A DNA stretch of 64,000 bases, from assembly GCA_001821015.1 (NCBI GenBank), contig MHRQ01000020.1:44977-108976 (forward strand), read 5' to 3'. Source of the stretch: Candidatus Taylorbacteria bacterium RIFCSPHIGHO2_02_FULL_46_13 (lineage in GTDB: Bacteria; Patescibacteriota; Minisyncoccia; Phycocordibacterales; DSPV01). Below, in pieces: positions 36-38,849 of this stretch. The translations under genes were made by a program, and so were the position numbers. A model generated the notes under the pieces. The model searched no databases and was not told where the DNA came from. It saw only the letters and a list, made by a program, of their open reading frames with translations. Within the stretch, counting starts at the first letter, position 1, and each line of letters starts with the position of its first letter.

Positions 36-1658
36 ATGAGTAAAACAGTATCAATAAAGACTTGTGTCGGTATCGGTGACATCCTTCATATCAAAGCTCA
101 ATTGGATGCGGTTAAGCATCAATATGAAAAAATCAGTATCGGCCCCGATGACAGTGACATAACCCTTTACCGAAACAATGATGACCGGTATAGGAAGTTT
201 GTCCGAGGACTGTTTGATCTCTTGTTCACCGAGAAGCCGTACGTGATAGATCCACACGTTTCAGGCGACAGAAAAAATCCGTACGCACTATGGGCGGACG
301 GGTTTGAGCCCGTGATCCCGAGGTTGGCGCATCTGTTATGTGACGGAGTTTCCGTATCTGCCGAACCGTATGTGGTTGTGCACACAAAGCTTCGCGGTTT
401 TAGAAGGTCTCATTACAATGATTTTAGGGCTGATTTCTTGAGGTTGATTGCCACTCTTGCTTGTAAATATCGCGTCGTTTTGCTTGGGGAAAGGACGATT
501 GGTTCAAACGCAGAATACAGAATTCATGGCCCCGAGCTGATATTTTCAATCTATGAGGATTTGCTAACCTGTCTGCCAGAGGATAAAATCATTGACCGTA
601 CCGTTCCCGAATTGGGTTTTACGTCGCCGGAGTTACCAAGATTTCTGGAGGAGTGTTTGATACAAAACAAAGCCACGCATGTTATTACGCTCGGAAGCGG
701 GGGAAATGTTTCAATAGCGATGTCGGTCGGCAACAGTATCGGCTACTACGGACAGTCACAGATGGAAGCATTTTTTGATAGAATGTTAGAGAACGATAGC
801 GATAAAAATGTTTTCTTGACCACAGATTTGAATCGGTATTTTGAGAAACTCGCTTCGCTTTCGTCGGTACCGTATGTACGCCGTCAGGCACCCCCCTCTC
901 TGCCCCTTACACCTAACAAAGAAATGAAAAATATCAAACACATCATTGAAGAGAAAAGACAGTCACATAACCCCGTATGGAAAATACTCGTTCAAGCGAA
1001 GGATTTCGCGTGGCGACTGAAACGCGCGCTACGGAACAACCGGCTTACTCACGTTGGAAAAAGGATTATAACGGATCATTTTAAGGAGTGGGAACCGAAA
1101 GACGAAGAGGTTTATTTGGATGTTGGGGCAAGAACTGGAGATGTGATCGGAATTTTCAAGCAAAAATTTCCGGGAGTCAAAGTTAAAATAGTGGCCGTTG
1201 AAGCTAACCCTAATGCCGTTGCGGCAATGAAGCGAGGTTACCCTGACGTCTTTGTCATCCAGAAGGGCGCTTGGAATAAGCAGGGGAAAGCTTCTCTTTC
1301 ACTGCCGAAGAATCTAGATTTTCTTGGAGAGGTTTCAGAAAACAGAAATCCGGATACGAGTTTGCCTAGATTTGATATAGAAGTAGATACGCTTGACCAC
1401 ATGCTCTCCGGTTTGGGGATTTCAGCTGTAGACTTTGTAAAGATTGACACAGAAGGGGCAGAACCGCAGGTTTTAGAGGGATTTACCAAATATAAAAAAG
1501 GGACAAAGTTCCACATTGAGTTTCATCGGAATGAAAATCGGGTTCTTGATATTTTGAAATCCAAAGGAATAAAAATCAATAGCACGGTGCGTTGGCCGGC
1601 AGATGTCAATCAAAAAGTCACCGCGGGCCAAGGTGAGATTTTTGCACAGAAAGAATAG
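36..1658 (+). CDS. Two-domain protein: N-terminal glycosyltransferase-like domain (weak GT-B/heptosyltransferase-like GIGD motif) fused to C-terminal FkbM-family SAM methyltransferase
   Basis: C-terminal ~150 aa (VYLDVGARTGDVIG ... VDFVKIDTEGAEPQVLEG) fit the FkbM methyltransferase pattern. N-terminus has KTCVGIGDILHIKAQLDAV, ITLGSGGN. Complete ORF in track. Confidence 0.5.
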   Translation: MSKTVSIKTCVGIGDILHIKAQLDAVKHQYEKISIGPDDSDITLYRNNDDRYRKFVRGLFDLLFTEKPYVIDPHVSGDRKNPYALWADGFEPVIPRLAHLLCDGVSVSAEPYVVVHTKLRGFRRSHYNDFRADFLRLIATLACKYRVVLLGERTIGSNAEYRIHGPELIFSIYEDLLTCLPEDKIIDRTVPELGFTSPELPRFLEECLIQNKATHVITLGSGGNVSIAMSVGNSIGYYGQSQMEAFFDRMLENDSDKNVFLTTDLNRYFEKLASLSSVPYVRRQAPPSLPLTPNKEMKNIKHIIEEKRQSHNPVWKILVQAKDFAWRLKRALRNNRLTHVGKRIITDHFKEWEPKDEEVYLDVGARTGDVIGIFKQKFPGVKVKIVAVEANPNAVAAMKRGYPDVFVIQKGAWNKQGKASLSLPKNLDFLGEVSENRNPDTSLPRFDIEVDTLDHMLSGLGISAVDFVKIDTEGAEPQVLEGFTKYKKGTKFHIEFHRNENRVLDILKSKGIKINSTVRWPADVNQKVTAGQGEIFAQKE

Positions 1659-1796
1659 GCGTAAGACGGACGAAGAAACGCTTTCAGATTCTACGCGATG
1701 TAAGAAAGCGTTCCCTTTACTTTCAAAATAGAAGTCAATGAGCGATCGTTTTGTCCTCCTATGGTCATATGATAGGATGGTTTGTAATACCTTATT

Positions 1797-3560
1797 TTGT
1801 ATATGTATCAGAGCAAACGTCATAATATTTTAGGACTGCATTTTGGTCACGGGGCGGGGGCGGCCATCATGTGCGATGGCAAAGTGGTTGCGGATGTTGC
1901 TGAAGAGCGGTGGAATCATGTTAAACATTCCAGTGATTTGCCTCTGGCCTCCATTCGGTTTTGTCTCAAGACTGCGGGTATCTCCATTCGTGAAATTGAC
2001 GAAATTGCAGTTGCGGGGTTGGCGGTGGGGGATCAGATAGAATCTATATTTGGACAAAAAGTAGCACTACCACAGAAGCAAGCCGAGAATTTTAAAGAAA
2101 CAATTTATTTTGCGGGGAAAAAGATAGTACGGGGGTTTTTGTTCGGGAATCGCCCGCAAACAACGCTTCGGACACCCCTCTACTGTAGAGAATTTTTTCT
2201 TGATGTATTGCCTACAGTTACTTTCGTTGAACATCATCTTGCTCACGCCGCCGCTGCGTATCTCACCACAAATGATGACCGGAAGATGATTATTGCTACG
2301 GTAGATGGGGCGGGGGACTCTAAATCATCATGTATGTGGAAAGGAGAGAATGGGAAGATTGTTCCGTTAGTGAAATATGATTATACAAGCTCTATAGGCT
2401 GGTTTTACAGTAATGTGACGGAAGCTATTGGGTGGTGGCACGGAGATGGAGAAGGGAAAACTATGGGTCTGGCTCCCTATGGCGATTATAAAAAATGCAA
2501 AGGAGCGCTTGACGGATTCTATCCGCAATTCAAAAATGGAGAATTAGTGAAGCCCAGAAATTTTCCGCAGACGACAGAGTTTAAGCTTTCAGGATCAATC
2601 CACTGGCATTCTGCTGATGCAGAGGCAATTGCAAAAATGGTAAAACAATACGGAACAGAAGATATTTCTGCGGAAGCTCAGAGAATTCTGGAGGAGCAAG
2701 TGATGGAATTTGTGATGCCGTGGCTGGTTAAAGAAAATACAAAAATTTTGGCTACCTCGGGCGGCGTTTTTCTGAATGTAAAGTTGAATCAAAGAATCTG
2801 GGAGTCAGGAAAAGTGCAGTCTCATTATCCGTACCCCAACCCCGGCGACTCGGGGTTGCCTTTAGGTGCCGCGCTCTATGTTGCAAATGAAAATGGGAGT
2901 TTAGAGAAGCCTGTAGCGAACCATTTGTATTGGGGTCCAGAATATTCCAACGAAGAGATTGAAAAGATTATTAAAGGAAGGGGTTTGGCGTATCGTAAGT
3001 CTAACGATGTGTCAGCCGAAGCGGCAAAATTTTTATCAGAAGATAAAATCGTCGGCTGGTTTCAAGGGAGGATGGAGTCGGGTCCACGAGCACTGGGCAA
3101 TCGCTCTATCTTAATGAGCCCAAAAAAGGCCGAGAACAAAGATATCATAAATGCTCGAGTAAAGTTTCGTGAAGCCTTTCGGCCGTTTTGCCCGTCTTTA
3201 ATTGATGAAGCCAAAGAGAAATATTTGGTGAAAGCGCGAAAAGAGAGATTTATGGTGACTTCGTTTGATTGTAAGCCAGAACGAAGGGGCGAACTTCCTG
3301 CGGTGGTGCATGTTGATGGCACCTTGCGTCCGCAGACTGTTACCAAGGAAGATAATCCTCTATATTGGAAACTTATATCAGAATTCGGAAAATTGACTGG
3401 TACGCCAGTTGTTTTAAATACATCCATGAATAGTATGGGTGAACCTATCGCGTGTTCTCCGCGCGAAGCGATACGTTGCTTCTTTGATTCGGGAATAGAC
3501 GCCTTAATTCTTGGAGATTTTATTCTTGAAAAATCCGTCTCTCGGTCATCAAAAACGTAA
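1797..3560 (+). CDS. Carbamoyltransferase, NodU/CmcH/NovN family
   Basis: N-terminal ASKHA-like HFGHGAGAAIMCDGKVVADVAEERWNHVKHSSDLP and overall ~590 aa length are typical of O-carbamoyltransferases. Confidence 0.8.
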   Translation: MYMYQSKRHNILGLHFGHGAGAAIMCDGKVVADVAEERWNHVKHSSDLPLASIRFCLKTAGISIREIDEIAVAGLAVGDQIESIFGQKVALPQKQAENFKETIYFAGKKIVRGFLFGNRPQTTLRTPLYCREFFLDVLPTVTFVEHHLAHAAAAYLTTNDDRKMIIATVDGAGDSKSSCMWKGENGKIVPLVKYDYTSSIGWFYSNVTEAIGWWHGDGEGKTMGLAPYGDYKKCKGALDGFYPQFKNGELVKPRNFPQTTEFKLSGSIHWHSADAEAIAKMVKQYGTEDISAEAQRILEEQVMEFVMPWLVKENTKILATSGGVFLNVKLNQRIWESGKVQSHYPYPNPGDSGLPLGAALYVANENGSLEKPVANHLYWGPEYSNEEIEKIIKGRGLAYRKSNDVSAEAAKFLSEDKIVGWFQGRMESGPRALGNRSILMSPKKAENKDIINARVKFREAFRPFCPSLIDEAKEKYLVKARKERFMVTSFDCKPERRGELPAVVHVDGTLRPQTVTKEDNPLYWKLISEFGKLTGTPVVLNTSMNSMGEPIACSPREAIRCFFDSGIDALILGDFILEKSVSRSSKT

Positions 3561-3629
3561 GACGGGCTCTCGCTCTTAATTGGAGAGGGAGGTGTAGGGT
3601 TTTAAGTTCAGCGTAGTTGTTTTTCCGTT

Positions 3630-4556
3630 TCAGGATGAGCCTCTTTTTTGCAGACGAGTTCTCCAGCCCAAGGTCCTGTAAAGTTTGCGTGTAATTCTTT
3701 TAAAAAGAGGATGACCTAAAAATAAGTCCTCGGTTTTATCGAGCAGTACCGAGATAGAGGTGTTCTTTTTCGCTTGAGTATCGGTTAAAGTCAGAATATT
3801 CCAATTTTTCTTGAGAATCGGCAGCTTCCAGGTTTCATTCTCGCGTGCATACCTGTGCACATACAATTTTTGCTTCGGGTTTTCATAGCTGAGGCAGTCA
3901 ACAAGGAACATAAAAGAAGAGTCAATCACATGTATTTCTTTCGCCCGTTCTATGATCGTGCAGTAGTCAAAGATATTTTTGGTGAGTGCCGGATCCGGAG
4001 AGAAGGTGCGATATTTCTTGTCAATAAATTTTCTCTCAATGCGGTAGTTCCTCGGCGCATCCTCGTGGAGAAATAGGTACTCACTGTTAGGCGCAACTTG
4101 ATTAAAGAAGGCCGTTTCTTTTTGAAGGTCTCTCTCAACAAAAAAGCTGTCCCACTTTTTTGTGAAAGCTACTCCAGCGATATCATAAAACTGTTTTTCA
4201 AACGGGGTTCCTGATTGTCTGTCCAGGTATTGGAATCCTATGATTTTTACTTCATCATAGCGGCTGCCGTTGAGAGCAATAAATTCTTTTACCAGCGCCT
4301 CATCTTTGGCAATAATTTCAAGATTCTTCAGATCGTGATACATGAACGATATAGAAGGATAGTTTTGGGGGGTTGAAAAGAGCGAGACTTTTTCGTATTT
4401 TTTACAATACTCTCGAATGATTCCGTGGCAAATGATATGGTCGCCCAAGCCAGATTGGTGTCGTAGCAAGATATGAGACATGGTTGTTTCTTTTACCGGG
4501 TGAATGTAACGAAGCGTTGGATTAAGGTCCCCATCTAATTTGATGGAGTATAGCAT
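3630..4556 (-). CDS. Hypothetical glycosyltransferase-like protein (true start possibly internal Met near 4481)
   Basis: ORF in track. ILLRHQSGLGDHIICHG motif resembles the GxGD motif in the N-terminus of the 36..1658 protein. No confident family assignment. Confidence 0.35.
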   Translation of the reverse strand: MLYSIKLDGDLNPTLRYIHPVKETTMSHILLRHQSGLGDHIICHGIIREYCKKYEKVSLFSTPQNYPSISFMYHDLKNLEIIAKDEALVKEFIALNGSRYDEVKIIGFQYLDRQSGTPFEKQFYDIAGVAFTKKWDSFFVERDLQKETAFFNQVAPNSEYLFLHEDAPRNYRIERKFIDKKYRTFSPDPALTKNIFDYCTIIERAKEIHVIDSSFMFLVDCLSYENPKQKLYVHRYARENETWKLPILKKNWNILTLTDTQAKKNTSISVLLDKTEDLFLGHPLFKRITRKLYRTLGWRTRLQKRGSS

Positions 4557-4605
4557 TTTCTAAAATTTCATGGTAGATTGGCGAAAAACCTGCTAAAATA
4601 ATCAC

Positions 4606-5640
4606 ATGAAGGCGGCACTATTAGAGAAAATAAACGGTCCATTGACCGTTGGAGATGTTCAGTTGACTGATTTATTATTCGGTCAGGTTTTGGTCAAGGT
4701 TTTGGTGAGTGGCATTTGCGGAGCGCAATTACAGGAGATTGCGGGCAATAAAGGTAATGCAAAATTTGTTCCGCACCTCTTAGGTCATGAAGGCTGTGGC
4801 ATCGTAGAAGCTACGGGTGTCGGAGTAACGAACGTAAAGAAAGGCGACAAAGTCATCATGCATTGGCGAAAAGGGGACGGCATTGAGTCTGATTTTCCGA
4901 GCTATGTATTTAATGGAAAAGTCATCAAGAGCGGAAAAATCACGACTTTTAATGAATATTCTATTGTTTCCGAAAATAGGATTACTCCGGTTCCAGAGGA
5001 CACCCCGAATGAGTTCTGCGCTTTGCTTGGATGTGGGCTCTCCACAGCCCTTGGCACTATAAACGATGAAGCAAATGTAAAGTTTGGTGAGAGTGTCATG
5101 ATAATAGGGGCTGGTGGCCTCGGGCTCAACCTCGTGCGGGCGGCGACACTTGCAAGTGCGCACCCCATCATCTCCGTTGATATCTACGACCATAAAAAAG
5201 AAATGGCCGAGTCGCTTGGCGCGCATCTCTACATCAACGCCGCAACACACAATATTCAGAACGAACTACAGAAAAAATTCGGTATGAGAGAGGTTGATGT
5301 AATCGTTGAAACTTCAGGAAGCAAGCAGGCGTTAGAAAATTCACTGCCTCTCTTAAGCGGTAGTGGGAGATACATCATGATCGGGCAACCTCGTCCCGGT
5401 GAAAGTGTTGAGCTTTTAAACGCCAATCATTTATTTGGCGGAGAGGGAAAAATGATTAAAGCGACACAAGGCGGCAGGTTTTCACCGAGTAGGGATATTC
5501 CGAGATATGTGAAGCTATACAAGGCGGGGATATTGAACATAGACAATATTATTACGCATCGGGTGAAGTTGGATAAGATCAATGATGCCATTGAGTTAGT
5601 TAGAAAAGGACAAGCAAGCCGCATACTCATAGAGATGTAG
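4606..5640 (+). CDS. Zinc-dependent alcohol dehydrogenase (medium-chain dehydrogenase/reductase family)
   Basis: GICGAQLQEIAGNKGNAKFVPHLLGHEGCGIVEATG (catalytic Zn site pattern) and GAGGLGL Rossmann motif. Confidence 0.8.
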   Translation: MKAALLEKINGPLTVGDVQLTDLLFGQVLVKVLVSGICGAQLQEIAGNKGNAKFVPHLLGHEGCGIVEATGVGVTNVKKGDKVIMHWRKGDGIESDFPSYVFNGKVIKSGKITTFNEYSIVSENRITPVPEDTPNEFCALLGCGLSTALGTINDEANVKFGESVMIIGAGGLGLNLVRAATLASAHPIISVDIYDHKKEMAESLGAHLYINAATHNIQNELQKKFGMREVDVIVETSGSKQALENSLPLLSGSGRYIMIGQPRPGESVELLNANHLFGGEGKMIKATQGGRFSPSRDIPRYVKLYKAGILNIDNIITHRVKLDKINDAIELVRKGQASRILIEM

Positions 5641-5644
5641 TTGT

Positions 5645-6604
5645 ATGAGTACTCCACTACTTGAAGCGTATAAAAAGATGTTTCTTATTCGGTTCACCGA
5701 GCAGGCGCTTGTAGAGTTGTATTTGAAACACAAAATAATGAGCTTTGTGCATTTTTATGTTGGTCAGGAGGCGGTCGCGGTTGGTGTGTGCAACAACTTG
5801 CGGAAGGAAGATAGGGTGCTCGGTAACCATCGCTCTCACGGCCATTACCTTGCTAAAGGAGGAGATTTACGTGCCATGATTTCTGAATTACTTGGAAAGG
5901 AAGGCGGGTCAAGCAAAGGGAAGGGTGGTTCTATGCATATGATAGATACGTCCGTGAATTTTATCGGTTCAACTCCAATTCTGGGAAGTGTGGTTCCCCT
6001 TGCGTCGGGTGCCGCATTTGAGCAGAAATATAATAAAAGGAAAGATATCACCGCAGTCTTTTTTGGAGACGGTGCGTTTGAAGAGGGTGTTGTGTACGAA
6101 ACGCTTAATCTTTCTGCGCTGTTCGCGCTTCCTTTGCTCTTTGTGGTAGAGAATAATTTATACTCGGTTAATTCTACATTGAAAGAGAGGAGGTCTGCGA
6201 ATCATAATGTTGAAAAAATTGTTACGGGGTTTGGAGTAACGTATCTCAAAGCTGACGGCAATGATTACGAGGATGTGTTTGAGAAAGCGCGGATGCTTAC
6301 AAAAGGGATTCGTGCGGGCGCAGGTCCTGCAGTGCTTGAGTGCATGACCTATCGGCATATGGCCCACAGCGCGCCTATCTTTGATGATGCGGCGGGCTAT
6401 CGGCAAGAAGATCCATTGGAGCGGCGGTTGGAGAGAGATCCGATTAAAAAGGTAAGGCGCTCCCTGTTGGAAAGTGGCATACCTGAAAACACGTTGGTAA
6501 CTTTAGAAGAGAAGATTCGTACCAGTGTGGCCGAGAGCATTCAATGTGCAGTAGATGCGCCTTATCCGAAAAAAGAAACTCTCTATACCAATTTATATGC
6601 CTGA
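5645..6604 (+). CDS. Thiamine-diphosphate-dependent dehydrogenase E1 component, alpha subunit
   Basis: FYVGQEAVAVGVC, HRSHGHYLAKGGD, GGSMHM and TPP motif GDGAFEEG...VVENN. Confidence 0.8.
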   Translation: MSTPLLEAYKKMFLIRFTEQALVELYLKHKIMSFVHFYVGQEAVAVGVCNNLRKEDRVLGNHRSHGHYLAKGGDLRAMISELLGKEGGSSKGKGGSMHMIDTSVNFIGSTPILGSVVPLASGAAFEQKYNKRKDITAVFFGDGAFEEGVVYETLNLSALFALPLLFVVENNLYSVNSTLKERRSANHNVEKIVTGFGVTYLKADGNDYEDVFEKARMLTKGIRAGAGPAVLECMTYRHMAHSAPIFDDAAGYRQEDPLERRLERDPIKKVRRSLLESGIPENTLVTLEEKIRTSVAESIQCAVDAPYPKKETLYTNLYA

Positions 6605-30502: not shown

Positions 30503-30510
30503 GGCAGTGC

Positions 30511-31608: not shown

Positions 31609-31621
31609 TATAAGGTGATAA

Positions 31622-31870
31622 CTACCACTTGTTGATTTTACGTACCACTTTTCGTTTCAGATTCAAGTATGATCGGGTTGCTCTCTGTTCAAGCTCAGGA
31701 GAGAGGACATGCAAAAGCTCACGCCCGAGGATTCGGTATTGACCACCGACCTTATTGGCGCGTATCATCCCGTTTTTAAGAAGTCGCTTCATAGTGCTCT
31801 TGCTCACTTTGAGAAGCTTCTGGGTTTCTGCGGTTGTATAGACCACTCCTGGCCTTATCTCTTCGTTCAT
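31622..31870 (-). CDS. Small excisionase-type (HTH_17-like) DNA-binding protein
   Basis: YTTAETQKLLKVSKSTMKRLLKNGMIRANKVGGQYRILGREL. 82 aa. Confidence 0.6.
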   Translation of the reverse strand: MNEEIRPGVVYTTAETQKLLKVSKSTMKRLLKNGMIRANKVGGQYRILGRELLHVLSPELEQRATRSYLNLKRKVVRKINKW

Positions 31871-31876
31871 AACCCT

Positions 31877-31905
31877 AGTATAGGGCAGGTGTCAAAAGGT
31901 GTCAA
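31877..31905 (-). promoter_or_regulatory. Sigma70-like promoter (TTGACA-N17-TATACT, minus strand) with duplicated TTGACACC box, 6 nt upstream of the HTH gene start codon (leaderless-type transcript)
   Basis: Minus strand reads CCTAC TTGACA CCTTTTGACACCTGCCC TATACT AGGGTT ATG. Plus strand shows GGTGTCAA at 31888..31895 and 31898..31905. Confidence 0.45.
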
Positions 31906-32058
31906 GTAGGTTCACATCTATAGAGACACATGATTAAGTATCAGTCAATTATTTTTTTCGTGTTTTCTTTATTGGGTGTGGTAGGGTGTATTCGGACAAA
32001 CAGTTTCCCACGCGGATGCGTGACTTTAAACTGTGTTTGAACTTTAACAAGGAGTGTT

Positions 32059-33054: not shown

Positions 33055-33060
33055 ATTGAA

Positions 33061-33088
33061 GGGTGGACACCAAGTCCACCCTTTTTTA
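33061..33088 (+). terminator. Rho-independent terminator (GGGTGGAC-ACCAA-GTCCACCC + T6)
   Basis: Perfect 8-bp GC-rich stem followed by TTTTTT directly after stop of 32059..33054. Confidence 0.65.
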
Positions 33089-33174
33089 ATGCGTGCGACA
33101 TGGTGATGGAGAGTTTAGAAACAAACTCCCTCTTGTCCTACCCCGCACCTCTGGCGCGGGTCAAGACGAGTACT

Positions 33175-33696
33175 TTACGGGTCCAAGACTCCGCCCTGCG
33201 GTTTAATACTCTTTATTTTTTCAATAATCTTTGTGGTTGAAATTGCTTCAAACTCCGGTGGGCAAGCTCGCTCAAGTATAACGAGCTTTGTTGGAGAACT
33301 TTTCAGCAGTTCACGTCGCTTCGGTATATCAAATGCGTCGGTAGTGATGACGTAGTAATCTGGCTTAAGCGTGCTGAACACTGAATTGAGTCCACTTAAA
33401 AGGTCCGTACTGAGAAGATTTTGATCAAGAAGAGCGTACGTCACTGATTTTATAGAGGAAACCATCTTAAGCCGTATATGTTGGTTTAAAACAGGGCGTT
33501 CCGCTCCTTTATATATGCGCAAAATGGAATCATTTCCGACCATTACGACAAGAATATCGCCGTATTTTTTACAATCTTCAAAGAAAAGAACATGGCCGGC
33601 ATGTGTCAGGTCAAAGCTACCAGAGCAAAATACAATCTTCTCATCCTTATGTTTCTCTCTGATAGAAGAGAGCTCTTTACCATCAATGATACTCAT
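33175..33696 (-). CDS. Cytidylyltransferase-like nucleotidyltransferase (HxGH family; glycerol-3-P cytidylyltransferase/RfaE-domain-II-like)
   Basis: KIVFCSGSFDLTHAGHVLFFEDCKKYGDILVVMVGND. Start set to internal Met MSIIDG; track ORF to 33777. Confidence 0.6.
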   Translation of the reverse strand: MSIIDGKELSSIREKHKDEKIVFCSGSFDLTHAGHVLFFEDCKKYGDILVVMVGNDSILRIYKGAERPVLNQHIRLKMVSSIKSVTYALLDQNLLSTDLLSGLNSVFSTLKPDYYVITTDAFDIPKRRELLKSSPTKLVILERACPPEFEAISTTKIIEKIKSIKPQGGVLDP

Positions 33697-33933
33697 GATA
33701 GGTATGTAGTATAGGACAGGCGGGCCTTCTTTAAAAGAGTGTGTGAAAATAATTGCAGGTATGCTTTTGTATAACACGACCGCGCGAGAAAGTCTTCTCT
33801 GTCTGTAGTGCGCAGGGATTTGACTGTGGGTTGCAAGAAATGGTAGGTTGACTCCAGATTTGCATGTTGTTGTGCAACATTAGATTGATGGTTCAACTAA
33901 CACACCAACGATAACTACCCAACAAAAAGGTGG

Positions 33934-34491
33934 ATGATGAAAATCCGAAAAGCACACGAGGTGAAAACTATTCTGGAGAGAAGGGACCAGAAGGTTTTTG
34001 AACAGTTGTTTACGCTTGAAGATGGTAGCTCGTATAACCCTCTTATGTATGGCGTTACGTTAGAGAACTATCCTGTTCTCATTATGCCTGTTACGAAAGA
34101 TAAACAGGTAATCGTGCTCAAGCAGTTTCGGTATGCAGCAGAAAAGGTGATACTGGAATTTCCAGGAGGGTGGCCAAAATCAGGAGAAACACCCCAGCAA
34201 GCTCTTCGCTCCGAGCTCGTTGAAGAGTCGGGGTATAAAGCGGGAAGGGTGATCCAGTTAACCAAAAAGCTTTGGTTTGAACCCGCGCACACTCGAGTGT
34301 TCTATGTTCCATTTCTTGCGTTGGACTGCGTGTTAGAAAGAAATCCGAAACCTGACCGATTGGAACACATTGAGGTGCTCAAGATTCCCCTTGATACGTG
34401 GATTGCCATGATTCAGAACGGGGAAGTTGAAGACGACAAGAGCATCGCCATCACCTTTCTGGCACTGACGCATTTGAAAGGTGCGGTCTAA
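33934..34491 (+). CDS. NUDIX hydrolase (position next to gmd/rmd-like genes suggests a GDP-sugar hydrolase such as GDP-mannose mannosyl hydrolase)
   Basis: Nudix box GGWPKSGETPQQALRSELVEESGY. Confidence 0.65.
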   Translation: MMKIRKAHEVKTILERRDQKVFEQLFTLEDGSSYNPLMYGVTLENYPVLIMPVTKDKQVIVLKQFRYAAEKVILEFPGGWPKSGETPQQALRSELVEESGYKAGRVIQLTKKLWFEPAHTRVFYVPFLALDCVLERNPKPDRLEHIEVLKIPLDTWIAMIQNGEVEDDKSIAITFLALTHLKGAV

Positions 34492-34496
34492 AGTTA

Positions 34497-34533
34497 AATC
34501 TTGCAGCGAAACAAAGCTGCAAGATTTTTTATT
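34497..34533 (+). terminator. Rho-independent terminator (AAATCTTGCAGC-GAAACAA-GCTGCAAGATTT + TTTATT)
   Basis: 12-bp perfect stem immediately after the NUDIX gene stop. Confidence 0.6.
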
Positions 34534-34839
34534 GCCGAGGAGAACAGCAACAAAAGGTTGAGGAGCGAATGCGTAGCGCTCCGAAAGACATGGTGATGTA
34601 GTTTTGAATCTTTGACGAAAAAACTAGCCACAAGGTGTAGTGAGCCTGTACGGTTTAATATTCTTTATTTCTTTCCAATACTTACGTGTAGATTTGTACG
34701 CCATTCATCAGCATGGTATAGTCGCACCAGATTCACTAATGCTAATGACTTGTTCATATGGTTTTGCGTGCGCAGATGCGACATGTAAACGGGAATGAAT
34801 CCTATATGAAAGCACATTGACACTCAAAGAAAGGTTAGT

Positions 34840-36381
34840 ATGCAGCCTAGAAAACTTGACGTATTGTTCGTTAATCCTGACTCATCTTTCAAGGCGTATC
34901 AGGCATTAAGCAAAGATTTTTCGGCAATAGAGCCGCCCACGTGGGCGTTACTGTTAGCCCAGAGTTGTCGGGCCAAAGGTTTTGGTGTCGGTATTTTGGA
35001 CTGTGGTGCCGAACGACTGGGCATTAATGATTCAATTGAACGCATTATTGGCGCAGACCCACGATTAGTCTGTTTTGTGGTGTACGGTCAAAACCCGAAT
35101 TCTGGCACTACAAATATGGCCGGTGCGCACGATTTGTGTGCACAGCTAAAGGAACAGTATCCTCAATATGTCACCTGCTTCGTAGGTTCTCACACCAGTG
35201 CCTTGCCTAAAGAAGTGCTGGCGTGGGATTGCGTAGATTTCGTTCTCTTGAATGAAGGTGTCTATGCACTTCATAACGTGCTCCAAACAGATCTGAAAGA
35301 ACATATTGAGCAGGTTAAGGGCATCGGCTACAAAAAGCAGGGTGTCTTGATCTTGAATCCCCCCGAGCGTGTCGTGCCGCAAGATCGGATGGACGTAGAC
35401 CTGCCGGGGTATGCGTGGGATCTTCTTCCGTATCGTGAAAAACCTCTTGACTTGTATCGGTCGCATTTCTGGCATGCGGAGTTCAATCATGAACTTCGTA
35501 CTCCATTCGTTGCACTCTACACGGGACTTGGGTGCAAGTTCAAATGTGACTTCTGCATGGTTAACATTGTCAACCGTGTTGATAATACTGACGGAGTTGT
35601 CGCTTCTCACTCACCGACCGTGCGCTTCTGGTCGCCAGAGTTTATGATTGGAGAATTTGAGAAACTTGCTGAACTGGGGGTCAAGACGGTCAGGATTTCA
35701 GACGAAATGTTTTTCCTTAATCGGAAATTCTTTGAACCGTTGTTGAATCTGGTTGTGGAACGCGGTTTCAAATTCCGCATGTGGGCGTACTCTCGCATAG
35801 ATACTGTTCAACCACAGCATTTAGATCTGTTTAAACGCGCGGGTATTAATTGGCTCGCACTTGGAATTGAGGCTGCCAATCTGGTCATCCGACAAGAAGT
35901 CTCCAAGGGTTCTTTCAAGGATATGAGCATCCGCAAAGTAGTAAGCGAGATTGGTCGGCATGACATGAATATAATTGCCAATTATATTTTCGGTCTTCCT
36001 GACGACAGTCTTAAAACGATGCAAGAAACACTGGACTTATCCTTGGAGTTGAATACTGAAACCGCAAACATGTTTCCTTGTCAGGGCTTGCCTGGTAGCG
36101 CGCTGTACTACCTCGCGAAAAGCAACGGGTGGGCCTTGCCGGATTCTTATGCCGGGTATGCATTTCTTTCTTATGAGAGCCAACCGTTGCCTACGAAATA
36201 TTGTACGGCGGCAGAAGTGCTCCGTTTTCGGGATGATGCGTGGAAAAAATACTTCTCTAATCCTGCGTATCTCAGCCTTGTGGAACGCAAATTCGGTGCC
36301 AACCAACGACGCAACGTTGAGGCTATGTCAAAAATCAAGCTTCGTCGCAAGCTTCTCGGTGATCCGCCTCCAGGGCCGTAG
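34840..36381 (+). CDS. B12-binding (class B) radical SAM enzyme, probable methyltransferase
   Basis: N-terminal cobalamin-binding-like region (LDVLFVNPDS...VGILDCG) and radical SAM cluster motif GCKFKCDFC (Cx3Cx2C). Confidence 0.7.
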   Translation: MQPRKLDVLFVNPDSSFKAYQALSKDFSAIEPPTWALLLAQSCRAKGFGVGILDCGAERLGINDSIERIIGADPRLVCFVVYGQNPNSGTTNMAGAHDLCAQLKEQYPQYVTCFVGSHTSALPKEVLAWDCVDFVLLNEGVYALHNVLQTDLKEHIEQVKGIGYKKQGVLILNPPERVVPQDRMDVDLPGYAWDLLPYREKPLDLYRSHFWHAEFNHELRTPFVALYTGLGCKFKCDFCMVNIVNRVDNTDGVVASHSPTVRFWSPEFMIGEFEKLAELGVKTVRISDEMFFLNRKFFEPLLNLVVERGFKFRMWAYSRIDTVQPQHLDLFKRAGINWLALGIEAANLVIRQEVSKGSFKDMSIRKVVSEIGRHDMNIIANYIFGLPDDSLKTMQETLDLSLELNTETANMFPCQGLPGSALYYLAKSNGWALPDSYAGYAFLSYESQPLPTKYCTAAEVLRFRDDAWKKYFSNPAYLSLVERKFGANQRRNVEAMSKIKLRRKLLGDPPPGP

Positions 36382-36488: not shown

Positions 36489-36584
36489 GCACTATTCAAT
36501 GAGCCGCGTGATCCACATCGCGCGGCTTTTTTGTGTTCGTATAACCCGGTGTTCCTTGCTTACTAGATATGTTTTGGTATAGTA

Positions 36585-38849
36585 TTGCCTACATTCATGA
36601 CGGTCAATAAATATCTCAAGTATTTTATCATCGCGGGACTCCTGCTGTCTCTTTTCATTCCTTTTATTGTAACCACACATTCTTTCTTCCCGTTCATCAC
36701 GGGAAAAAATTTTGCATTCCGTATTATCACGGAAATTATTTTCGGTGTCTGGATCATCCTTGCTTTGTGTGACAGCACCTACCGCCCGAAGTTCTCGTGG
36801 CTCGCCGTATCAGTTGGGATGTTTGTTCTCGTAATCGGCATCGCTGACATTTTTAGCGCGAATCCATACAAGAGCTTTTGGTCAAACTTTGAGCGCATGG
36901 AGGGATACATCACGATTTTGCATTTGGCCGCCTATTTCCTTGTCGCGTCTTGCGTGCTGAACACTGAAAAGCTTTGGACATTCTTTTTGCAGACGAGTGT
37001 AGGGGCGAGCATCATTATGAGCGTGTACGGCATGTTGCAACTGGCTGGAAAGCTTACGATCAATCAAGGCGGTGTGCGTCTTGACGGTACACTCGGAAAC
37101 GCTTCCTACCTCGCGGTCTACATGATGTTGAATTTGTTCATCGTGCTCTTTTTGCTTGTGCGGCAGAGAAAAATCGTACTGTGGCGATGGGTGTACGGCG
37201 TGGCGATAGTTTCCCAGCTTTATATTCTTTACCACACCGCAACGCGAGGCGCGATATTGGGGTCGCTAGGAGGGGTGCTGATTGCTGGAATATTACTGAC
37301 GTTGTTTTCCCATATCAAAACACACCGCCGAATTGGGATGGTGGCACTGGGAGTTGTGGTGCTTTTGTTCGCGCTTGGCGCGACGCTGAAGAATACTGAT
37401 TTTGTGAAGAATCAACCTTCGTTGGTAAGGCTCACCGATATTTCAACCAGTGAAGCAAAGTCGCGTTTTCTAGTGTGGGGCATGGCGTGGGAAGGATTTA
37501 AAGAAAGCCCCAAAACCATGGTTATCGGCTGGGGGCAGGAGAGTTTTAACTATGTGTTCAACAAATATTACAACCCGGCCATGTATGCGCAGGAGCAGTG
37601 GTTTGACCGCACGCACGACATTTTCTTTGATTGGTTGGTTGCGGGCGGGGCACTCGGTCTGTTGGGATATCTTTCCATACTTTTCTTCGCGCTTTATTAT
37701 ATTTGGAAGCAGGGTGAGCTTGATTTTTCGCTGAAACACTGGTTTCGGCGATGGGTTCAATTTTCTAAGGGTCAGGAAATCCCGCATCTTTTGGAGAAGG
37801 TGGTGCTGACGGGCCTCTTGTTTGCGTACGTGTTTCAAAACATTTTCGTTTTTGACAATATCACGAGCTACCTTCTGTTTTTTGCGCTTCTCGCGTACCT
37901 TCATTCCATTTCCGGCCAGCCCATCAAGAAGCTTTCTAAAGACCATTTTCAAATTGAGCAGCGTACGGTCAATAGCATGCTGGTGCCGCTCGTCGTAGTC
38001 GCTACTATTTTTGTCGTTTATATCGCGAATGTAACGCCGATACGCGCGTCCACGAGTCTCATTGACGCGCTCCGCCCGCAACAAGCGGGTCCGGCAACGA
38101 ATCTAGATTATTTTAAAAAGACCCTTGCACTCAATTCATTGGGGAACCCCGAGGTTCGCGAACAACTCGCGCAGGCCACCATTCAAGTCATCTCTGGGCA
38201 GTCGGTGGACCTCACGCTTAAACAGCAGTTCTACGATCTGACGCGAAGTGAATTGTTGAAGCAAGTTGATAAAACGCCGAATGATGCGCGCTATTATCTT
38301 TTTCTTGGATCATTTCTCAACCGTGTGCACAATTATGATGAAGCGCTCACCGCGCTTACGAAAGCCTTTGAGCTTTCTCCAAAGAAACAGACGATTATGT
38401 TTGAGCTCGGTTCAACATACATCAATAAAGGCGACAACGCCAAGGCGCTTGCCCTCATGAAAGCTGCGTTTGATCTTGATCAAAGTTTTGCCGAAGCACG
38501 AATTATTTATGCGGTTGCTTTGGTGTATGCGAAAGATTTCGCGACTGCCGAGGAGCTGATGCAACCTCTCGCCGGGACTGCGCGGGAATATGATGATCGG
38601 CTGGTAAACGCGTATTCAGCCACAGGACGCCTCAGCACGGTCGTTGATCTTTTAGGCAAGCGGGTTGAACACAACCCAAAAGACTCGCAAGCACGATTTA
38701 GTCTTGCGGCGGCATATTTGGCGTCAGGTGCGCGAGCGAAAGCGGTTGGGGTATTGCGAACAGTGGTTAAAGATTTTTCAGATCAAAAAGATAAAGTAGA
38801 TCAGGCCAATTATTACATTCAGGAAATTCAGGCGGGGAGAAACCCCTAA
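36585..38849 (+). CDS. Polytopic membrane protein with O-antigen ligase/polymerase (Wzy_C-like) domain fused to C-terminal TPR repeats
   Basis: About 10 hydrophobic helices; TATRGAILGSLGG and THDIFFDWLVAGGALG motifs (Wzy_C-like); C-terminal 250 aa with TPR-like A/L/Y periodicity. Confidence 0.55.
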   Translation: MPTFMTVNKYLKYFIIAGLLLSLFIPFIVTTHSFFPFITGKNFAFRIITEIIFGVWIILALCDSTYRPKFSWLAVSVGMFVLVIGIADIFSANPYKSFWSNFERMEGYITILHLAAYFLVASCVLNTEKLWTFFLQTSVGASIIMSVYGMLQLAGKLTINQGGVRLDGTLGNASYLAVYMMLNLFIVLFLLVRQRKIVLWRWVYGVAIVSQLYILYHTATRGAILGSLGGVLIAGILLTLFSHIKTHRRIGMVALGVVVLLFALGATLKNTDFVKNQPSLVRLTDISTSEAKSRFLVWGMAWEGFKESPKTMVIGWGQESFNYVFNKYYNPAMYAQEQWFDRTHDIFFDWLVAGGALGLLGYLSILFFALYYIWKQGELDFSLKHWFRRWVQFSKGQEIPHLLEKVVLTGLLFAYVFQNIFVFDNITSYLLFFALLAYLHSISGQPIKKLSKDHFQIEQRTVNSMLVPLVVVATIFVVYIANVTPIRASTSLIDALRPQQAGPATNLDYFKKTLALNSLGNPEVREQLAQATIQVISGQSVDLTLKQQFYDLTRSELLKQVDKTPNDARYYLFLGSFLNRVHNYDEALTALTKAFELSPKKQTIMFELGSTYINKGDNAKALALMKAAFDLDQSFAEARIIYAVALVYAKDFATAEELMQPLAGTAREYDDRLVNAYSATGRLSTVVDLLGKRVEHNPKDSQARFSLAAAYLASGARAKAVGVLRTVVKDFSDQKDKVDQANYYIQEIQAGRNP

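Follow-up and report, generated by a model that had tools for sequence, protein, structure and literature searches.

The closest counterparts of the ABC-transporter-dependent glycan assembly considered here are the S-layer O-glycan clusters of Gram-positive bacteria. The S-layer glycan (slg) clusters of monoderm bacteria combine wzm/wzt genes, methyl caps and a Wzy_C O-oligosaccharyltransferase (O-OTase), which in P. alvei (WsfB) carries a C-terminal TPR domain (PMC2943079). CPR cells possess an S-layer and pili without an outer membrane (bioRxiv 10.1101/2020.05.14.094862). The host of the region described here is a groundwater bacterium of the CPR lineage Candidatus Taylorbacteria, with the tiny genome that a first-pass annotation had supposed. 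At least 39 kb of its contiguous DNA, and probably about 49 kb or more, goes into making, decorating and exporting cell-surface sugar chains; the whole stretch analysed (64,000 nucleotides) is here called the window.

Positions 36-38849 contain 37 ORFs (the ORF listing plus one small ORF; several start codons are uncertain) at a coding density of 94%, and Pfam and NCBIfam profile searches find glycan-type domains in about 31 of them. Domain checks bear out the enzyme classes listed at first pass, and the estimate of about 35 genes holds. The extent of about 38 kb was too low: position 36 is the window edge, and at least 10 kb more of glycan genes continue leftward (left flank, labelled L005; comparison loci in other genomes have labels such as L104, L106 and L107), including RmlA-like, intein-bearing RmlB-like, GT1 and SDR genes and a polyprenyl-P-sugar synthase with a GT-C. 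The region is real, correctly assembled and non-chimeric: window positions 1-53250 are tiled, with 99.9-100% identity, by independent assemblies from several samples and different assemblers, and the sequence shows a uniform tetranucleotide composition, which disposes of the chimera of unrelated contigs that the first-pass annotation had named as its possible refutation.

The sole exporter encoded in the locus is Wzm/Wzt, as previously claimed; no Wzx-type (Polysacc_synt) protein is found among the scanned window ORFs of at least 100 aa. Wzt (28262-29608, minus strand), the ATPase of the ABC exporter, has an additional domain at its C-terminus; it scores 86.8 bits against ABC_tran (Walker A at residue 102) and, below both NCBIfam cutoffs, 213 bits against TagH and 186 bits against galactan Wzt. 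Wzm (29675-30502, minus strand) is an ABC-2 permease with five predicted TM segments (PF01061 ABC2_membrane, 58.2 bits, cutoff 26.9), whose sole NCBIfam match is galactan Wzm (77.7 bits). Like WsfB, the polytopic protein encoded at 36585-38849 (plus strand) joins Wzy_C (O-antigen-ligase/O-oligosaccharyltransferase family; 58 bits, cutoff 31.7; about ten predicted TM segments) to a C-terminal domain matching TPR families. A homolog of it occurs no more than 10 kb from Wzt in 7 of 21 CPR loci versus 0 of 59 non-CPR loci, and the gene order Wzy_C-TPR, (GMD), Wzm, Wzt is a recurrent backbone in CPR genomes. Among the closest CPR relatives the nucleotide-binding domain of Wzt is 66-70% identical and the C-terminal domain variable, as expected if that domain reads a strain-specific chain end.

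An operon of 21 co-directional minus-strand genes runs from 31870 to 12256, with 19 of its 20 junctions no longer than 66 nt and 11 overlaps, seven of them of the 4-nt ATGA type. It is headed by a promoter-like site, TTGACA-17-TATACT (31877-31905, -; 11/12 matches, a consensus match only), and its first ORF encodes an 82-aa HTH_17 DNA-binding protein (31622-31870, -; the identical gene of L110 and L111 matches PF12728). The seven to eight glycosyltransferase-like genes between 36 and 38849 agree with the earlier count of at least seven. For the composite region the number of such proteins is at least eight. Besides the Wzy_C-TPR gene and the GT9-like gene treated below, those in 36-38849 include a GT2 enzyme that ends the operon (12256-13284, -; Glycos_transf_2, 106.9 bits), a member of GT11, the alpha-1,2-fucosyltransferase family (13451-14305, -; PF01531, 113.3 bits), a fucosyltransferase-like enzyme with a GT10 C-terminal domain (27191-28258, -; PF00852, 25.3 bits, cutoff 23.9), and a GT4-family enzyme (8415-9581, +; Glyco_trans_1_4, 87.3 bits). 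An MptE/Maf-like protein (23249-24286, -; PF01973, 40.3 bits, cutoff 34.6) is, on the pattern of Maf proteins, a candidate ulosonic-acid transferase. A marginal GT8-like gene (20438-21463, -; PF01501, 21.5 bits, below the cutoff of 24.3) adjoins FdtA/DegT genes in CPR loci, with homologs 43-50% identical in L013, L016, L018, L023 and L040.

Four nucleotide-sugar routes had been proposed. The GDP route has the only enzyme-level (equivalog) assignment above an NCBIfam cutoff, GMD, which is a GDP-mannose 4,6-dehydratase (30511-31608, -; TIGR01472, 497.9 bits, cutoff 415); the CDP route and most specificities fall below curated cutoffs. Because all equivalog assignments except GMD do so, the sugar identities are guesses. 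Positions 36-38849 encode four SDR enzymes. One, SDR331 (32059-33054, +), is akin to GDP-4-keto-6-deoxymannose reductase (Rmd) and GDP-heptose 4,6-dehydratase (PDB 7us5, 189 bits; 2pk3, 181.5 bits; 6x3b, 148.8 bits); its second-best structure match, 2pk3, is a GDP-6-deoxy-D-lyxo-4-hexulose reductase that we take to be Aneurinibacillus thermoaerophilus Rmd. A putative CDP-6-deoxy route is suggested by best hit only, from an SDR NDP-hexose 4,6-dehydratase closest to CDP-glucose 4,6-dehydratase (10141-11193, +; TIGR02622, 195.7 bits, below the cutoff of 278; PDB 1wvg, 146 bits; 1rkx, 141 bits). A further SDR is classed broadly as an epimerase/reductase (17764-18723, -; Epimerase, 92.8 bits); its best PDB match, 6vo6 (73.6 bits), is a putative sugar-nucleotide epimerase/dehydratase. 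At the domain level, a 3-amino-3,6-dideoxy route consists of an FdtA-type NDP-4-keto-6-deoxyhexose 3,4-ketoisomerase (20028-20441, -; PF05523, 119.4 bits) and a DegT-family sugar aminotransferase (18724-20043, -; PF01041, 390.5 bits), which the RmlA- and RmlB-like genes of the left flank would supply. An RfbH-type dehydrase was rejected for the latter gene (ArnB 256 and PseC 255 bits versus RfbH 150). The 3,4-ketoisomerase of A. thermoaerophilus and the structure of FdtA are cited in a review (PMC2943079). Also at the domain level, a CMP-ulosonate route comprises a short NeuB-family ulosonic-acid synthase without a C-terminal SAF domain (25655-26527, -; PF03102, 217.6 bits; TIGR03569, 192 bits, below the cutoff of 399.65, over positions 3-270 of the 329 in the profile), a CMP-ulosonate cytidylyltransferase of NeuA/PseF/KdsB type (26524-27279, -; PF02348, CTP_transf_3, 95.5 bits; PseF, 119.7 bits, below the cutoff of 205.7) and a HAD phosphatase of KdsC/KDN-9-P phosphatase type (9597-10169, +; NF007019 90.7, NF058599 84.4 and TIGR01670 78.8 bits, all below cutoffs).

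Both of the carbamoyltransferases reported earlier, of NodU/CmcH type, have Carbam_trans_N and Carbam_trans_C domains (140 and 224 bits at 1797-3560, +; 317.8 and 233.5 bits at 15894-17759, -); the former scores 137.8 bits against the NodU equivalog, far below the cutoff of 1000. The six or so methyltransferases resolve into four secure and two weaker candidates. The former are a 540-aa protein with an orphan N-terminal portion of about 350 aa and a C-terminal FkbM-type domain (36-1658, +; PF05050, 38.1 bits; TIGR01444, 64.7 bits, cutoff 37.7), which has no homologs outside its own 90% cluster and no PDB match; a TIGR04325-family enzyme (22425-23252, -; 206 bits, cutoff 80); a class I SAM methyltransferase (24296-24988, -; Methyltransf_23, 47.4 bits); and a TylF-type O-methyltransferase (24996-25658, -; PF05711, 69.5 bits). 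The candidates are a marginal FkbM-like gene (21460-22428, -; PF05050, 21.1 bits, cutoff 22.7; TIGR01444, 22.6 bits, cutoff 37.7; both below) and a B12-binding radical SAM enzyme, possibly a C-methyltransferase or something other (34840-36381, +; PF04055 50.9 and PF02310 46.7 bits; CxxxCxxC at residue 232). A membrane-anchored SGNH/GDSL-like protein (14307-15356, -; N-terminal TM segments, GDSF motif at residue 106, weak NF047475 match) is a candidate O-acyl esterase/transferase.

The predicted ADH/TPP-dependent E1 module is present in full at the domain level: a Zn-dependent alcohol dehydrogenase and candidate ketoreductase (4606-5640, +; ADH_zinc_N, 67 bits; ADH_N, 58.5 bits; orthologs 73-84% identical in L104 and L106), a stand-alone E1 alpha (5645-6604, +; E1_dh, 223 bits; PDH E1 alpha, 315.6 bits, below the cutoff of 393.85) with an intact TPP motif GDG..NN at residue 141, and E1 beta (6555-7637, +; Transket_pyr 97.3 and Transketolase_C 70.1 bits; NF006667, 245.7 bits, below the cutoff of 321). 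A short sugar(-phosphate) kinase of the PfkB family, resembling RfaE domain I, follows (7634-8377, +; PfkB, 71 bits; TIGR02198, 107.4 bits, below the cutoff of 345; ortholog 65% identical in L106), and divergent from the ADH gene lies a gene for a protein conserved in CPR bacteria, whose GT-B fold is like that of GT9 (heptosyltransferase) enzymes (3630-4556, -). No E2 or E3 partner gene occurs anywhere in the window. The E1ab-like pairs AviB1/AviB2 and Pau11/Pau12 are proposed to use pyruvate to add an acetyl branch at C-4 that is subsequently reduced by a ketoreductase (PMC4753412); the E1ab genes here lack E2/E3 partners and adjoin an ADH and a 4,6-dehydratase. The product that the GT9-like/ADH-E1a-E1b-PfkB unit makes and transfers is probably a sugar that is either C-branched (acetyl or hydroxyethyl) or higher-carbon, for which the substrates would be a keto-sugar nucleotide and pyruvate.

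On balance, we consider it reasonably likely that the region is composite and serves a monoderm CPR bacterium for surface-glycan biosynthesis, with ABC-transporter-dependent assembly and a separable GT9-like/ADH-E1 module. Assembly of the chain would take place on the cytoplasmic side, on a polyprenyl-phosphate carrier and by way of an initiating transferase encoded elsewhere; the chain would then be methylated and carbamoylated and might receive a modified ulosonic acid as its cap, the cap genes being directly downstream of wzt. After export by Wzm/Wzt, the Wzy_C-TPR enzyme would attach it by O-glycosylation to an acceptor, for which an S-layer protein or a pilin is most likely, and outside the membrane the polyprenyl-P-sugar synthase, the GT-C and the SGNH-like protein may decorate it further. 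Counting against this model is the C-terminal region of Wzt, which scores 26.1 bits against Wzt_C, below the Pfam cutoff of 30.4, and the absence of an initiating phosphoglycosyltransferase (WecA/MraY or WbaP type) from the window and 10 kb of left flank. Against it, too, count the membership of polymerases and lipid-acceptor ligases in the Wzy_C family and the failure to identify an S-layer protein, pilin or other acceptor.

That everything here serves a single glycan, as the first-pass annotation held, was an assumption, given at least six transcription units and the separate conservation of two modules, the CPR backbone (Wzy_C-TPR, GMD, Wzm, Wzt) and the Parcubacteria-wide GT9-like/ADH-E1a-E1b-(PfkB) unit. 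The latter is kept in all four other Parcubacteria genomes compared (55-84% identity) amid differing glycan genes, consistent with its being separable or belonging to a second glycoconjugate. In L107 a Wzx-type flippase lies near the E1 module and Wzm/Wzt is absent within 10 kb; the product of the module therefore need not go through Wzm/Wzt, and the unit may contribute either to the same polymer or to another glycoconjugate. The investment, which had been thought exceptional, is typical of the lineage: each of the four comparison loci, 20 kb long, is full of GT and MT genes. Because its modules recur across related bacteria, the composite region is a trait of the lineage rather than a one-off.

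To four or five ORFs no glycan role can be assigned. These are a PaaX_M/Cas2-like possible regulator (11390-11959, +; PF20803, 67.4 bits), a 196-aa membrane protein with two predicted TM segments and no Pfam, NCBIfam or PDB match (15353-15943, -), the radical SAM gene, and two of uncertain membership: a cytidylyl/adenylyltransferase-like gene, RfaE domain II-like (33175-33777, -; PF01467, 54.3 bits; TIGR02199, 73.6 bits, below the cutoff of 181.5), and a NudE/NudK-like NUDIX hydrolase (33934-34491, +; PF00293, 39.3 bits; NudE, 57.1 bits, below the cutoff of 169). The right-hand genes (33175-36381) are monocistronic, with terminators between them, and may be unrelated to the glycan locus; a strong terminator follows the NUDIX gene (34496-34527) and another the B12-radical-SAM gene (36501-36528). 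A paralog of the cytidylyl/adenylyltransferase-like gene lies at 52825-53301.

The glycan locus (36-38849) contains 37 ORFs at a coding density of 94%, and each enzyme class listed for it in the first-pass annotation is confirmed by Pfam and NCBIfam. Sugar-nucleotide tailoring enzymes, glycosyltransferases, modification enzymes, the transporter proteins Wzm and Wzt, and a Wzy_C protein with a TPR tail (Wzy_C-TPR; 36585-38849, plus strand) are present at the domain level, mainly in one long operon. The system is an ABC-transporter-dependent surface-glycan locus, to which our analysis adds two CPR-specific conserved pieces, an exporter/ligase backbone and an E1 module; no prior description of either piece, of the locus itself or of CPR Wzm/Wzt glycan loci was found in the searchable literature. 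The annotation had interpreted the region as a very large investment by a small-genome organism in a single surface glycan: its enzyme inventory, the small genome (the lineage is CPR/Parcubacteria) and the non-chimeric nature of the DNA stand, whereas its scale is too low, its single glycan is an assumption, and the investment is typical of the clade rather than exceptional.

That the region might be an assembly chimera, or a recent foreign island not native to Taylorbacteria, is scarcely credible and already largely refuted. The window is matched exactly on contigs of the Rifle aquifer metagenome (e.g. ANAN16 scaffold_326, 105,641 bp; longest carrier 141,534 bp), locus tags form an unbroken series between A3C06_02805 (gene 36-1658) and A3C06_02945 (Wzt), and four marker proteins spread over the locus each occur on 14-21 contigs, 9-11 of them 50-200 kb long, from varied samples and assemblers. 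Independent contigs from MEGAHIT, IDBA-type, JGI and Logan assemblies of different samples span every junction at 99.9-100% identity (BLASTN), with tiling overlaps at 1-11658 (contig L006), 5894-27759 (L093, L094 and L095), 25675-34502 (L110, L112 and L113) and 30725-53250 (L001). Glycan loci are classically among the hotspots of horizontal transfer, gene 36-1658 is without homologs, and the segment at 32-36 kb has the lowest tetranucleotide correlation inside the locus (0.77); however, composition is uniform, with GC of 0.41-0.485 along the locus and tetranucleotide correlations to the rest of the window of 0.77-0.92, equal to those of the housekeeping DNA on the right-hand flank, and the nearest relatives of Wzt, Wzm, GMD, Wzy_C-TPR, the E1 module and its 308-aa GT9-like-fold protein are all CPR. 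Two strain variants that apparently split GT4, GMD and Wzt (contigs L007 and L109) contain N-runs and are therefore scaffolding artefacts, and a difference of 194 aa versus 211 aa upstream of gene 36-1658 is a matter of gene calling only.

MurB, SecA and nucleotide-metabolism genes follow position 38849, which makes it a reasonable right end of the locus. Genes in 33175-36381 are monocistronic and flanked by strong terminators, and their role in glycan synthesis is uncertain. The left end at position 36 is a window artefact: contig L005, which is identical to the window across their overlap and reaches 10 kb further left (window position 1 is L005 9966), carries an NTP_transferase gene, an intein-interrupted dTDP-glucose-4,6-dehydratase-like gene, and GT2, PMT_2, GT1 and SDR genes. 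The glycan region therefore extends over at least ~49 kb, and the ~38 kb of the annotation understates it; ~49 kb is itself a lower bound, the left boundary having been traced to -10 kb, and an exact 60-mer from the end of L005 had no match among metagenome contigs. The intein-bearing RmlB-like SDR (L005 635-2680, 681 aa, LAGLIDADG/Hint) has relatives of at most 73% identity in the related-locus search, and the same insertion is widespread in CPR and in archaea (e.g. Thermococcus, Methanothermus and Methanotorris). A 40-bp sequence immediately left of window position 1 (L005 9893-9932) recurs as a direct repeat, at 90% identity, within gene 36-1658 (825-864), and the short-read contigs L007, L009 and L012 terminate 45-54 bp upstream of window position 1.

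Among the four nucleotide-sugar routes originally proposed, the GDP route (GMD), the amino-dideoxy route (FdtA/DegT) and the NeuB and CMP-transferase genes are borne out, whereas the CDP route and the identity of the nonulosonate are sub-threshold assignments. GMD (30511-31608) is the only protein to reach an enzyme-specific (equivalog) curated cutoff (TIGR01472, 497.9 bits; cutoff 415), and represents the GDP-6-deoxyhexose route; the FkbM and TIGR04325 methyltransferase models pass their own cutoffs at the family or domain level only, and all remaining enzyme-level labels are best sub-threshold matches. NCBIfam gave no Fcl-level match among window ORFs. The locus encodes four SDR enzymes, one of which (SDR331; 32059-33054, plus strand) has as its top PDB matches a GDP-heptose 4,6-dehydratase (7us5, 189 bits) and GDP-4-keto-6-deoxymannose reductases (Rmd, 2pk3, at 181.5 bits, and another at 148.8 bits). 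The NDP-3-amino-3,6-dideoxyhexose route (FdtA/FdtB type) is represented by FdtA (119.4 bits) and DegT (390.5 bits), with the RmlA-like and intein-bearing RmlB-like genes of L005 as its candidate RmlA/RmlB supply; no N-acyltransferase for this route was found. DegT was rejected as an RfbH-type 3-dehydrase of a 3,6-dideoxy route (~255 bits on aminotransferase models, 150 on RfbH). The CMP-nonulosonate pathway comprises a NeuB-family synthase (PF03102, 217.6 bits) and a CMP-transferase (PF02348, 95.5 bits), both short of the equivalog level (NeuB 192 versus a cutoff of 399.65; PseI 130.9 versus 340; PseF 119.7 versus 205.7). Because the NeuB-like synthase is the short form without a SAF domain, Pfam and NCBIfam detect no upstream NeuC, Pse or Leg enzymes, 2-epimerase or acetyltransferase in window ORFs, and a KdsC/KDN-9-P-phosphatase-like HAD protein is present, a Kdn/Kdo-like route through a phosphorylated precursor would be more parsimonious than synthesis of sialic, pseudaminic or legionaminic acid. 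The candidate CDP-glucose 4,6-dehydratase scores 195.7 bits against a cutoff of 278, with CDP-glucose dehydratases as its top PDB matches (best 1wvg); no glucose-1-phosphate cytidylyltransferase was found at the RfbF level, the NTP_transferase at 48332 reaching just 57 bits on TIGR02623.

Both predicted carbamoyltransferases carry Carbam_trans_N (Kae1-like) and Carbam_trans_C (YrdC-like) domains and score 138-143 bits on the NodU equivalog, below its cutoff of 1000. The earlier count of about six methyltransferases resolves into four secure cases (the FkbM domain of gene 36-1658, TIGR04325, a class I methyltransferase and TylF) and two weaker ones, a marginal FkbM-like protein and a B12-radical-SAM candidate. 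The count of at least seven glycosyltransferase-like genes is reproduced by GT4, GT2, GT11, a GT10 C-terminal domain, an MptE/Maf-like protein, a marginal GT8-like protein and the polytopic Wzy_C-TPR. Walker A, CxxxCxxC, GDSF, and GxxGxxG with YxxxK motifs are intact, and no pseudogenes are apparent in the locus. The membrane-anchored protein encoded at 14307-15356 is classed as SGNH-like because of its GDSF motif; PDB sequence searches with this protein and with those encoded at 36-1658, 3630-4556 and 15353-15943 returned no meaningful match. Among 5.8 billion clustered proteins, homologs of the 540-aa product of gene 36-1658 are confined to its own 90% cluster. The sole recognisable part of this protein is the C-terminal FkbM domain; the N-terminal ~350 aa are an orphan, and a single-sequence AF2 model has a pLDDT of 34. 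A paralogous relation between its N-terminal domain and the 3630-4556 protein, suggested by a G-[LI]-G-D motif that they have in common, found no support in BLASTP (E 1.2).

The long minus-strand operon (31870 to 12256) consists of 21 co-directional genes, with 19 of the 20 junctions at 66 nt or less and 11 overlaps. An 82-aa HTH_17 ORF (31622-31870, minus strand) lies between a near-consensus promoter, TTGACA-17-TATACT, and GMD, which starts 13 nt on; this protein is likely to be both the first gene and the regulator of the operon. A 189-aa PaaX_M/Cas2-like protein (11390-11959, plus strand; 24.4 bits on the Cas2 model versus a cutoff of 24.5), encoded alone between two convergent glycan operons, is another possible regulator. 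Scanning the window for Rfam families and tRNAs gave no matches.

Export by Wzm and Wzt, as originally proposed, is supported by the presence of both genes (Wzm, 29675-30502, PF01061, 58.2 bits; Wzt, 28262-29608, PF00005, 86.8 bits, with Walker A), which are adjacent and 66 nt apart, and no ORF scanned matched a Wzx flippase (Polysacc_synt/MOP family). Wzm and Wzy_C-TPR are the only polytopic proteins among the scanned ORFs. Wzt has ~165 extra residues after the nucleotide-binding domain (Wzt_C, 26.1 bits versus a cutoff of 30.4; E 9.5e-6), a part that varies among CPR relatives. Wzy_C-TPR (Wzy_C, 58 bits; cutoff 31.7) has ~10 TM segments and a C-terminal TPR, an architecture that matches descriptions of WsfB and PglL. 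No initiating polyprenyl-phosphate (phospho)glycosyltransferase of the WecA/WbaP type was found in window positions 1-57 kb or the 10-kb left flank (~67 kb). The initiating enzyme would therefore be encoded outside this stretch. Assembly of the chain would take place in the cytoplasm on a polyprenyl carrier and would be followed by methylation and carbamoylation and then possibly by capping. A modified ulosonic-acid cap is an attractive candidate because genes for GT10-like, NeuA, NeuB, two methyltransferases and a Maf-like protein lie just downstream of wzt. Wzm/Wzt would then export the chain, and Wzy_C-TPR would transfer it to the acceptor. The product is most likely a protein O-glycan on an S-layer or pilin, by analogy, because CPR cells have an S-layer and pili and lack an outer membrane (bioRxiv 10.1101/2020.05.14.094862), and Gram-positive S-layer clusters follow the same logic. 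No glycosylated S-layer or pilin target was identified within the window.

Gram-positive S-layer glycan (slg) clusters likewise serve a monoderm cell with an S-layer and combine wzm/wzt export of a lipid-linked chain completed in the cytoplasm (a step that is predicted here), methyl capping, tightly overlapping ORFs and a Wzy_C O-OTase that has its own transcript and, in WsfB, a C-terminal TPR (PMC2943079). They also share an FdtA-type 3,4-ketoisomerase and an Rmd-like reductase, the latter here among the PDB matches of SDR331 (2pk3). The region described here is probably about two to three times larger; it differs further in that a WbaP-type initiating enzyme is missing from the cluster and in the addition of two carbamoyltransferases, a NeuB/NeuA-type ulosonate route, the E1ab/ADH module, the GT9-like-fold protein and a GT-C pair. 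Wzm/Wzt with an extra C-terminal part of Wzt (here a putative Wzt_C domain), and an initiating enzyme encoded outside the cluster, are features shared with E. coli O8/O9a (WbdD-Wzt) and Klebsiella O12, whose chains end in a terminating modification at the non-reducing end that the transporter reads, as may also happen here. In Klebsiella O12 the terminal cap is beta-Kdo, and in E. coli the initiating enzyme gene wecA lies elsewhere in the genome. Methyl caps are discussed in PMC2943079. Unlike these ABC-dependent O-polysaccharides, the present system operates without an outer membrane or lipid A-core acceptor, its Wzt_C is sub-threshold, and neither a WbdD-like kinase nor a coiled-coil ruler could be recognised.

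A scan of genome collections with Wzt yielded 80 loci (21 CPR, 59 non-CPR), the closest of which, at 49-70% identity, come almost entirely from CPR lineages (Azambacteria, Uhrbacteria, Paceibacterota, Saccharibacteria and Falkowbacteria). When all proteins of the locus were compared with these loci by tblastn, a backbone of (Wzy_C-TPR), GMD, Wzm and Wzt recurred, followed by variable genes; sub-modules such as GT8-like/FdtA/DegT and NeuB/NeuA/TylF-methyltransferase/methyltransferase recur in varied combinations. Seven of the 21 CPR loci, and none of the 59 others, have a Wzy_C-TPR homolog within 10 kb of Wzt. The nearest Wzt nucleotide-binding domains are 66-70% identical and their C-terminal parts are unrelated, a pattern that fits swapping of the substrate-reading domain between strains. 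Large glycan regions are a lineage trait, because four E1-module contexts fill 20 kb with differing glycosyltransferase and methyltransferase genes and the Wzt loci recur; the investment thought to be exceptional is thus typical of the clade.

In the E1 module, a gene for a 308-aa protein with a GT9-like fold (3630-4556, minus strand) is divergent from ADH, E1 alpha, E1 beta and PfkB genes (4606-8377). A Zn-ADH is followed by E1 alpha, with its GDG...NN TPP motif intact, and E1 beta; a Pfam scan of the ORFs found no E2, E3 or lipoyl domains anywhere in the window. Four homologs of the 308-aa protein were examined in context: L104, L106 (Parcubacteria LiPW_30), L107 (a 355-kb JGI contig, the protein named Candidatus Vogelbacteria) and L108 (Candidatus Wolfebacteria). 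The GT9-like gene is divergent from ADH-E1a-E1b in all four and PfkB is present in two, with identities in L104 and L106 of 73-84% for ADH, 69% for E1a, 70-78% for E1b, 65% for PfkB (L106 only) and 55-66% for the GT9-like protein. The neighbours differ, with a Wzx-type flippase in one locus (L107) and GmhA-like (SIS_2), GHMP-kinase and NTP-transferase genes in another (L104), and the module is absent within 10 kb of Wzt in 80 of 80 Wzt-related loci. The module is a conserved, separable unit. The gene after E1 beta encodes a short PfkB kinase in the window, in L106 (6157-6897) and in L108 (5942-6685), a 242-aa protein with a pyruvate-kinase domain in L104 (5937-6665), and an adh_short SDR on the opposite strand in L107.

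The best precedents for the E1ab/ADH unit, by analogy, appear to be AviB1/AviB2 of avilamycin and Pau11/Pau12 with Pau7 of paulomycin, which are likewise stand-alone E1 alpha/beta pairs without E2/E3, near a reductase and an NDP-hexose 4,6-dehydratase; AviB1/AviB2 and Pau11/Pau12 are proposed to transfer an acetyl branch from pyruvate onto a 4-keto sugar, which then undergoes ketoreduction (PMC4753412). Those systems make actinomycete antibiotic sugars, whereas the present one lies in a CPR surface-glycan locus, has a Zn-ADH as its candidate reductase and is coupled to genes for a GT9-like protein and a short PfkB kinase. Yersiniose in Gram-negative O-antigens is made with YerE, an unrelated flavoenzyme. 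Nucleotide-heptose pathways with GT9 enzymes (RfaE/HldE, GmhA/B, WaaC/WaaF) are resembled in the GT9-like fold, an RfaE-I-like kinase and an RfaE-II-like nucleotidyltransferase, and Campylobacter GDP-heptose-modifying SDRs in the best PDB match of SDR331; they differ in that the window has no GmhA (SIS) gene and all scores, including those of the kinase and nucleotidyltransferase, are sub-threshold. No GT9 sequence signature (Pfam/CAZy) was found in 3630-4556, and the nucleotidyltransferase (33175-33777) may be a housekeeping gene, given a paralog elsewhere in the window. The RfaE-I-like kinase, the GT9-like fold, the GDP-heptose-dehydratase-like SDR and the GmhA/HddA-like genes of L104 raise the possibility that E1ab/ADH acts on a heptose or makes a higher-carbon sugar.

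The single glycan of the annotation is an assumption: the region has at least six transcription units, in three orientations, and includes an E1 module that has other neighbours in other genomes. A serious if tentative alternative, overlapping and compatible with a protein O-glycan, is that the region makes at least two distinct glycoconjugates, the 21-gene operon and Wzy_C-TPR producing the ABC-exported polymer and the GT9-like/ADH-E1ab-kinase/GT4/HAD/SDR genes, with the left-flank polyprenyl-phosphate-sugar synthase, GT-C and GT1, making or modifying a different product, for example a glycolipid, a conserved core glycan or a modification of pilin. The E1 module is 55-84% identical to its relatives against typically 30-60% for operon genes, its contexts include a Wzx-type locus, it is missing from the 10 kb around Wzt in all 80 Wzt-related loci, and the left-flank GT2/GT-C pair forms a self-contained two-component system, its best match being PpgS (58.5 bits, below cutoff). 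Against this, the ~49 kb show a single exporter and a single ligase-type protein, the modules adjoin one another without intervening housekeeping genes, and conserved "core" and variable "decoration" genes often share a single-polymer locus. The pair, a 250-aa GT2 (best matches PpgS, AglJ and dolichyl-P-hexose transferase, all far below cutoffs) beside a 487-aa PMT_2 (GT-C) protein in a Wzm/Wzt region, resembles polyprenyl-phosphate-sugar synthase and GT-C systems (Gtr-type, Gram-positive wall-polymer, PpgS/Rv3779), but no GtrA-type flippase was recognised beside it. In mycobacteria, PpgS/Rv3779 lies beside the galactan Wzm/Wzt exporter, and PpgS with Rv3779 is used likewise in decorating arabinogalactan.

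Somewhat unlikely, though not far behind, is a product of another kind, a secondary cell-wall polysaccharide or lipoglycan that Wzm/Wzt would export and that would be linked to peptidoglycan or to a lipid, in the manner of Gram-positive rhamnose-rich wall polysaccharides, wall teichoic acids or mycobacterial galactan. The best NCBIfam matches are TagH for Wzt (213 bits, and 189 bits on a second model) and the galactan exporter for Wzt and Wzm (186 and 77.7 bits), MurB adjoins the locus, and polyprenyl-phosphate-sugar synthase plus GT-C is the decoration logic of Gram-positive wall polymers (PMC8035078). Yet the exporter matches are all well under their cutoffs (538 and 320 for the TagH models), no LytR-CpsA-Psr (LCP) ligase domain occurs in the window ORFs scanned, and Wzy_C-TPR, which has the architecture of the S-layer O-OTase WsfB, is syntenic with wzm/wzt specifically in CPR. 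A second ABC-2 transporter at 51-53 kb was rejected as a TagGH-type exporter, being DrrA-like instead; its ATPase and permease are followed by a CTP_transf_like gene paralogous in type to 33175-33777, the whole group occupying 51161-53301 on the plus strand. A Gram-negative-type LPS O-antigen locus, in which Wzy_C would serve as the WaaL ligase for lipid A-core, is highly improbable. O-antigen clusters do typically contain Wzm/Wzt, Wzy_C, GMD and fucosyltransferase-like GT families, but CPR cells have no outer membrane, a Pfam scan of window ORFs detected no Lpx, Lpt or Waa core genes, and the Wzy_C protein is roughly double the length of WaaL (~400 aa) and has a TPR domain, like O-OTases.

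Among these readings the protein O-glycan remains the preferred one. More broadly, and doubtfully, Parcubacteria-type CPR might share a dedicated, hitherto undescribed two-part glycosylation system, in which Wzy_C-TPR/GMD/Wzm/Wzt would O-glycosylate the S-layer or pilus with strain-variable, methylated, carbamoylated chains and the highly conserved five-gene E1 unit would make and install a C-branched or higher-carbon sugar unique to the lineage, the 308-aa protein being a new GT-B family with a GT9-like fold. If so, the glycan would be one of the main factors governing how these episymbionts attach to their hosts and are recognised by phages. CPR live attached to other cells with almost no biosynthetic capacity, yet ~49 kb of intact, dense glycan genes are kept, or ~4-7% of a genome assumed to be 0.7-1.2 Mb (relatives' contigs are 680-688 kb), and the cell surface is the site of host recognition, phage adsorption and evasion of immunity and predators. 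Large modular ABC-dependent glycan loci are already well known, which limits the surprise, and CPR genomes have earlier been described as rich in surface-modification genes; glycosylation processes in Saccharibacteria were called "unexplored" in a 2024 preprint on pili. The bulk observation now becomes testable units: the CPR exporter/ligase backbone, the E1/ADH/GT9-like module, and predicted mass signatures (methyl, carbamoyl, ulosonic acid, amino-dideoxyhexose).

To the right of the locus, downstream of SecA, small nucleotide-handling genes (two HIT, one NUDIX and one Maf) occur with ORFs lacking a family match (44039-48331). A giant ORF (57807-63998, plus strand; at least 2064 aa) extends past the end of the window and has a Peptidase_S74 domain (endosialidase-type intramolecular chaperone) at residues 1925-1971, pointing to a self-cleaving trimeric adhesin or fibre; the protein might be a surface fibre and, possibly, a substrate for glycosylation. 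The 3' part of the ORF (60-64 kb) stands out in composition, with a tetranucleotide r of 0.34 and GC of up to 0.51.
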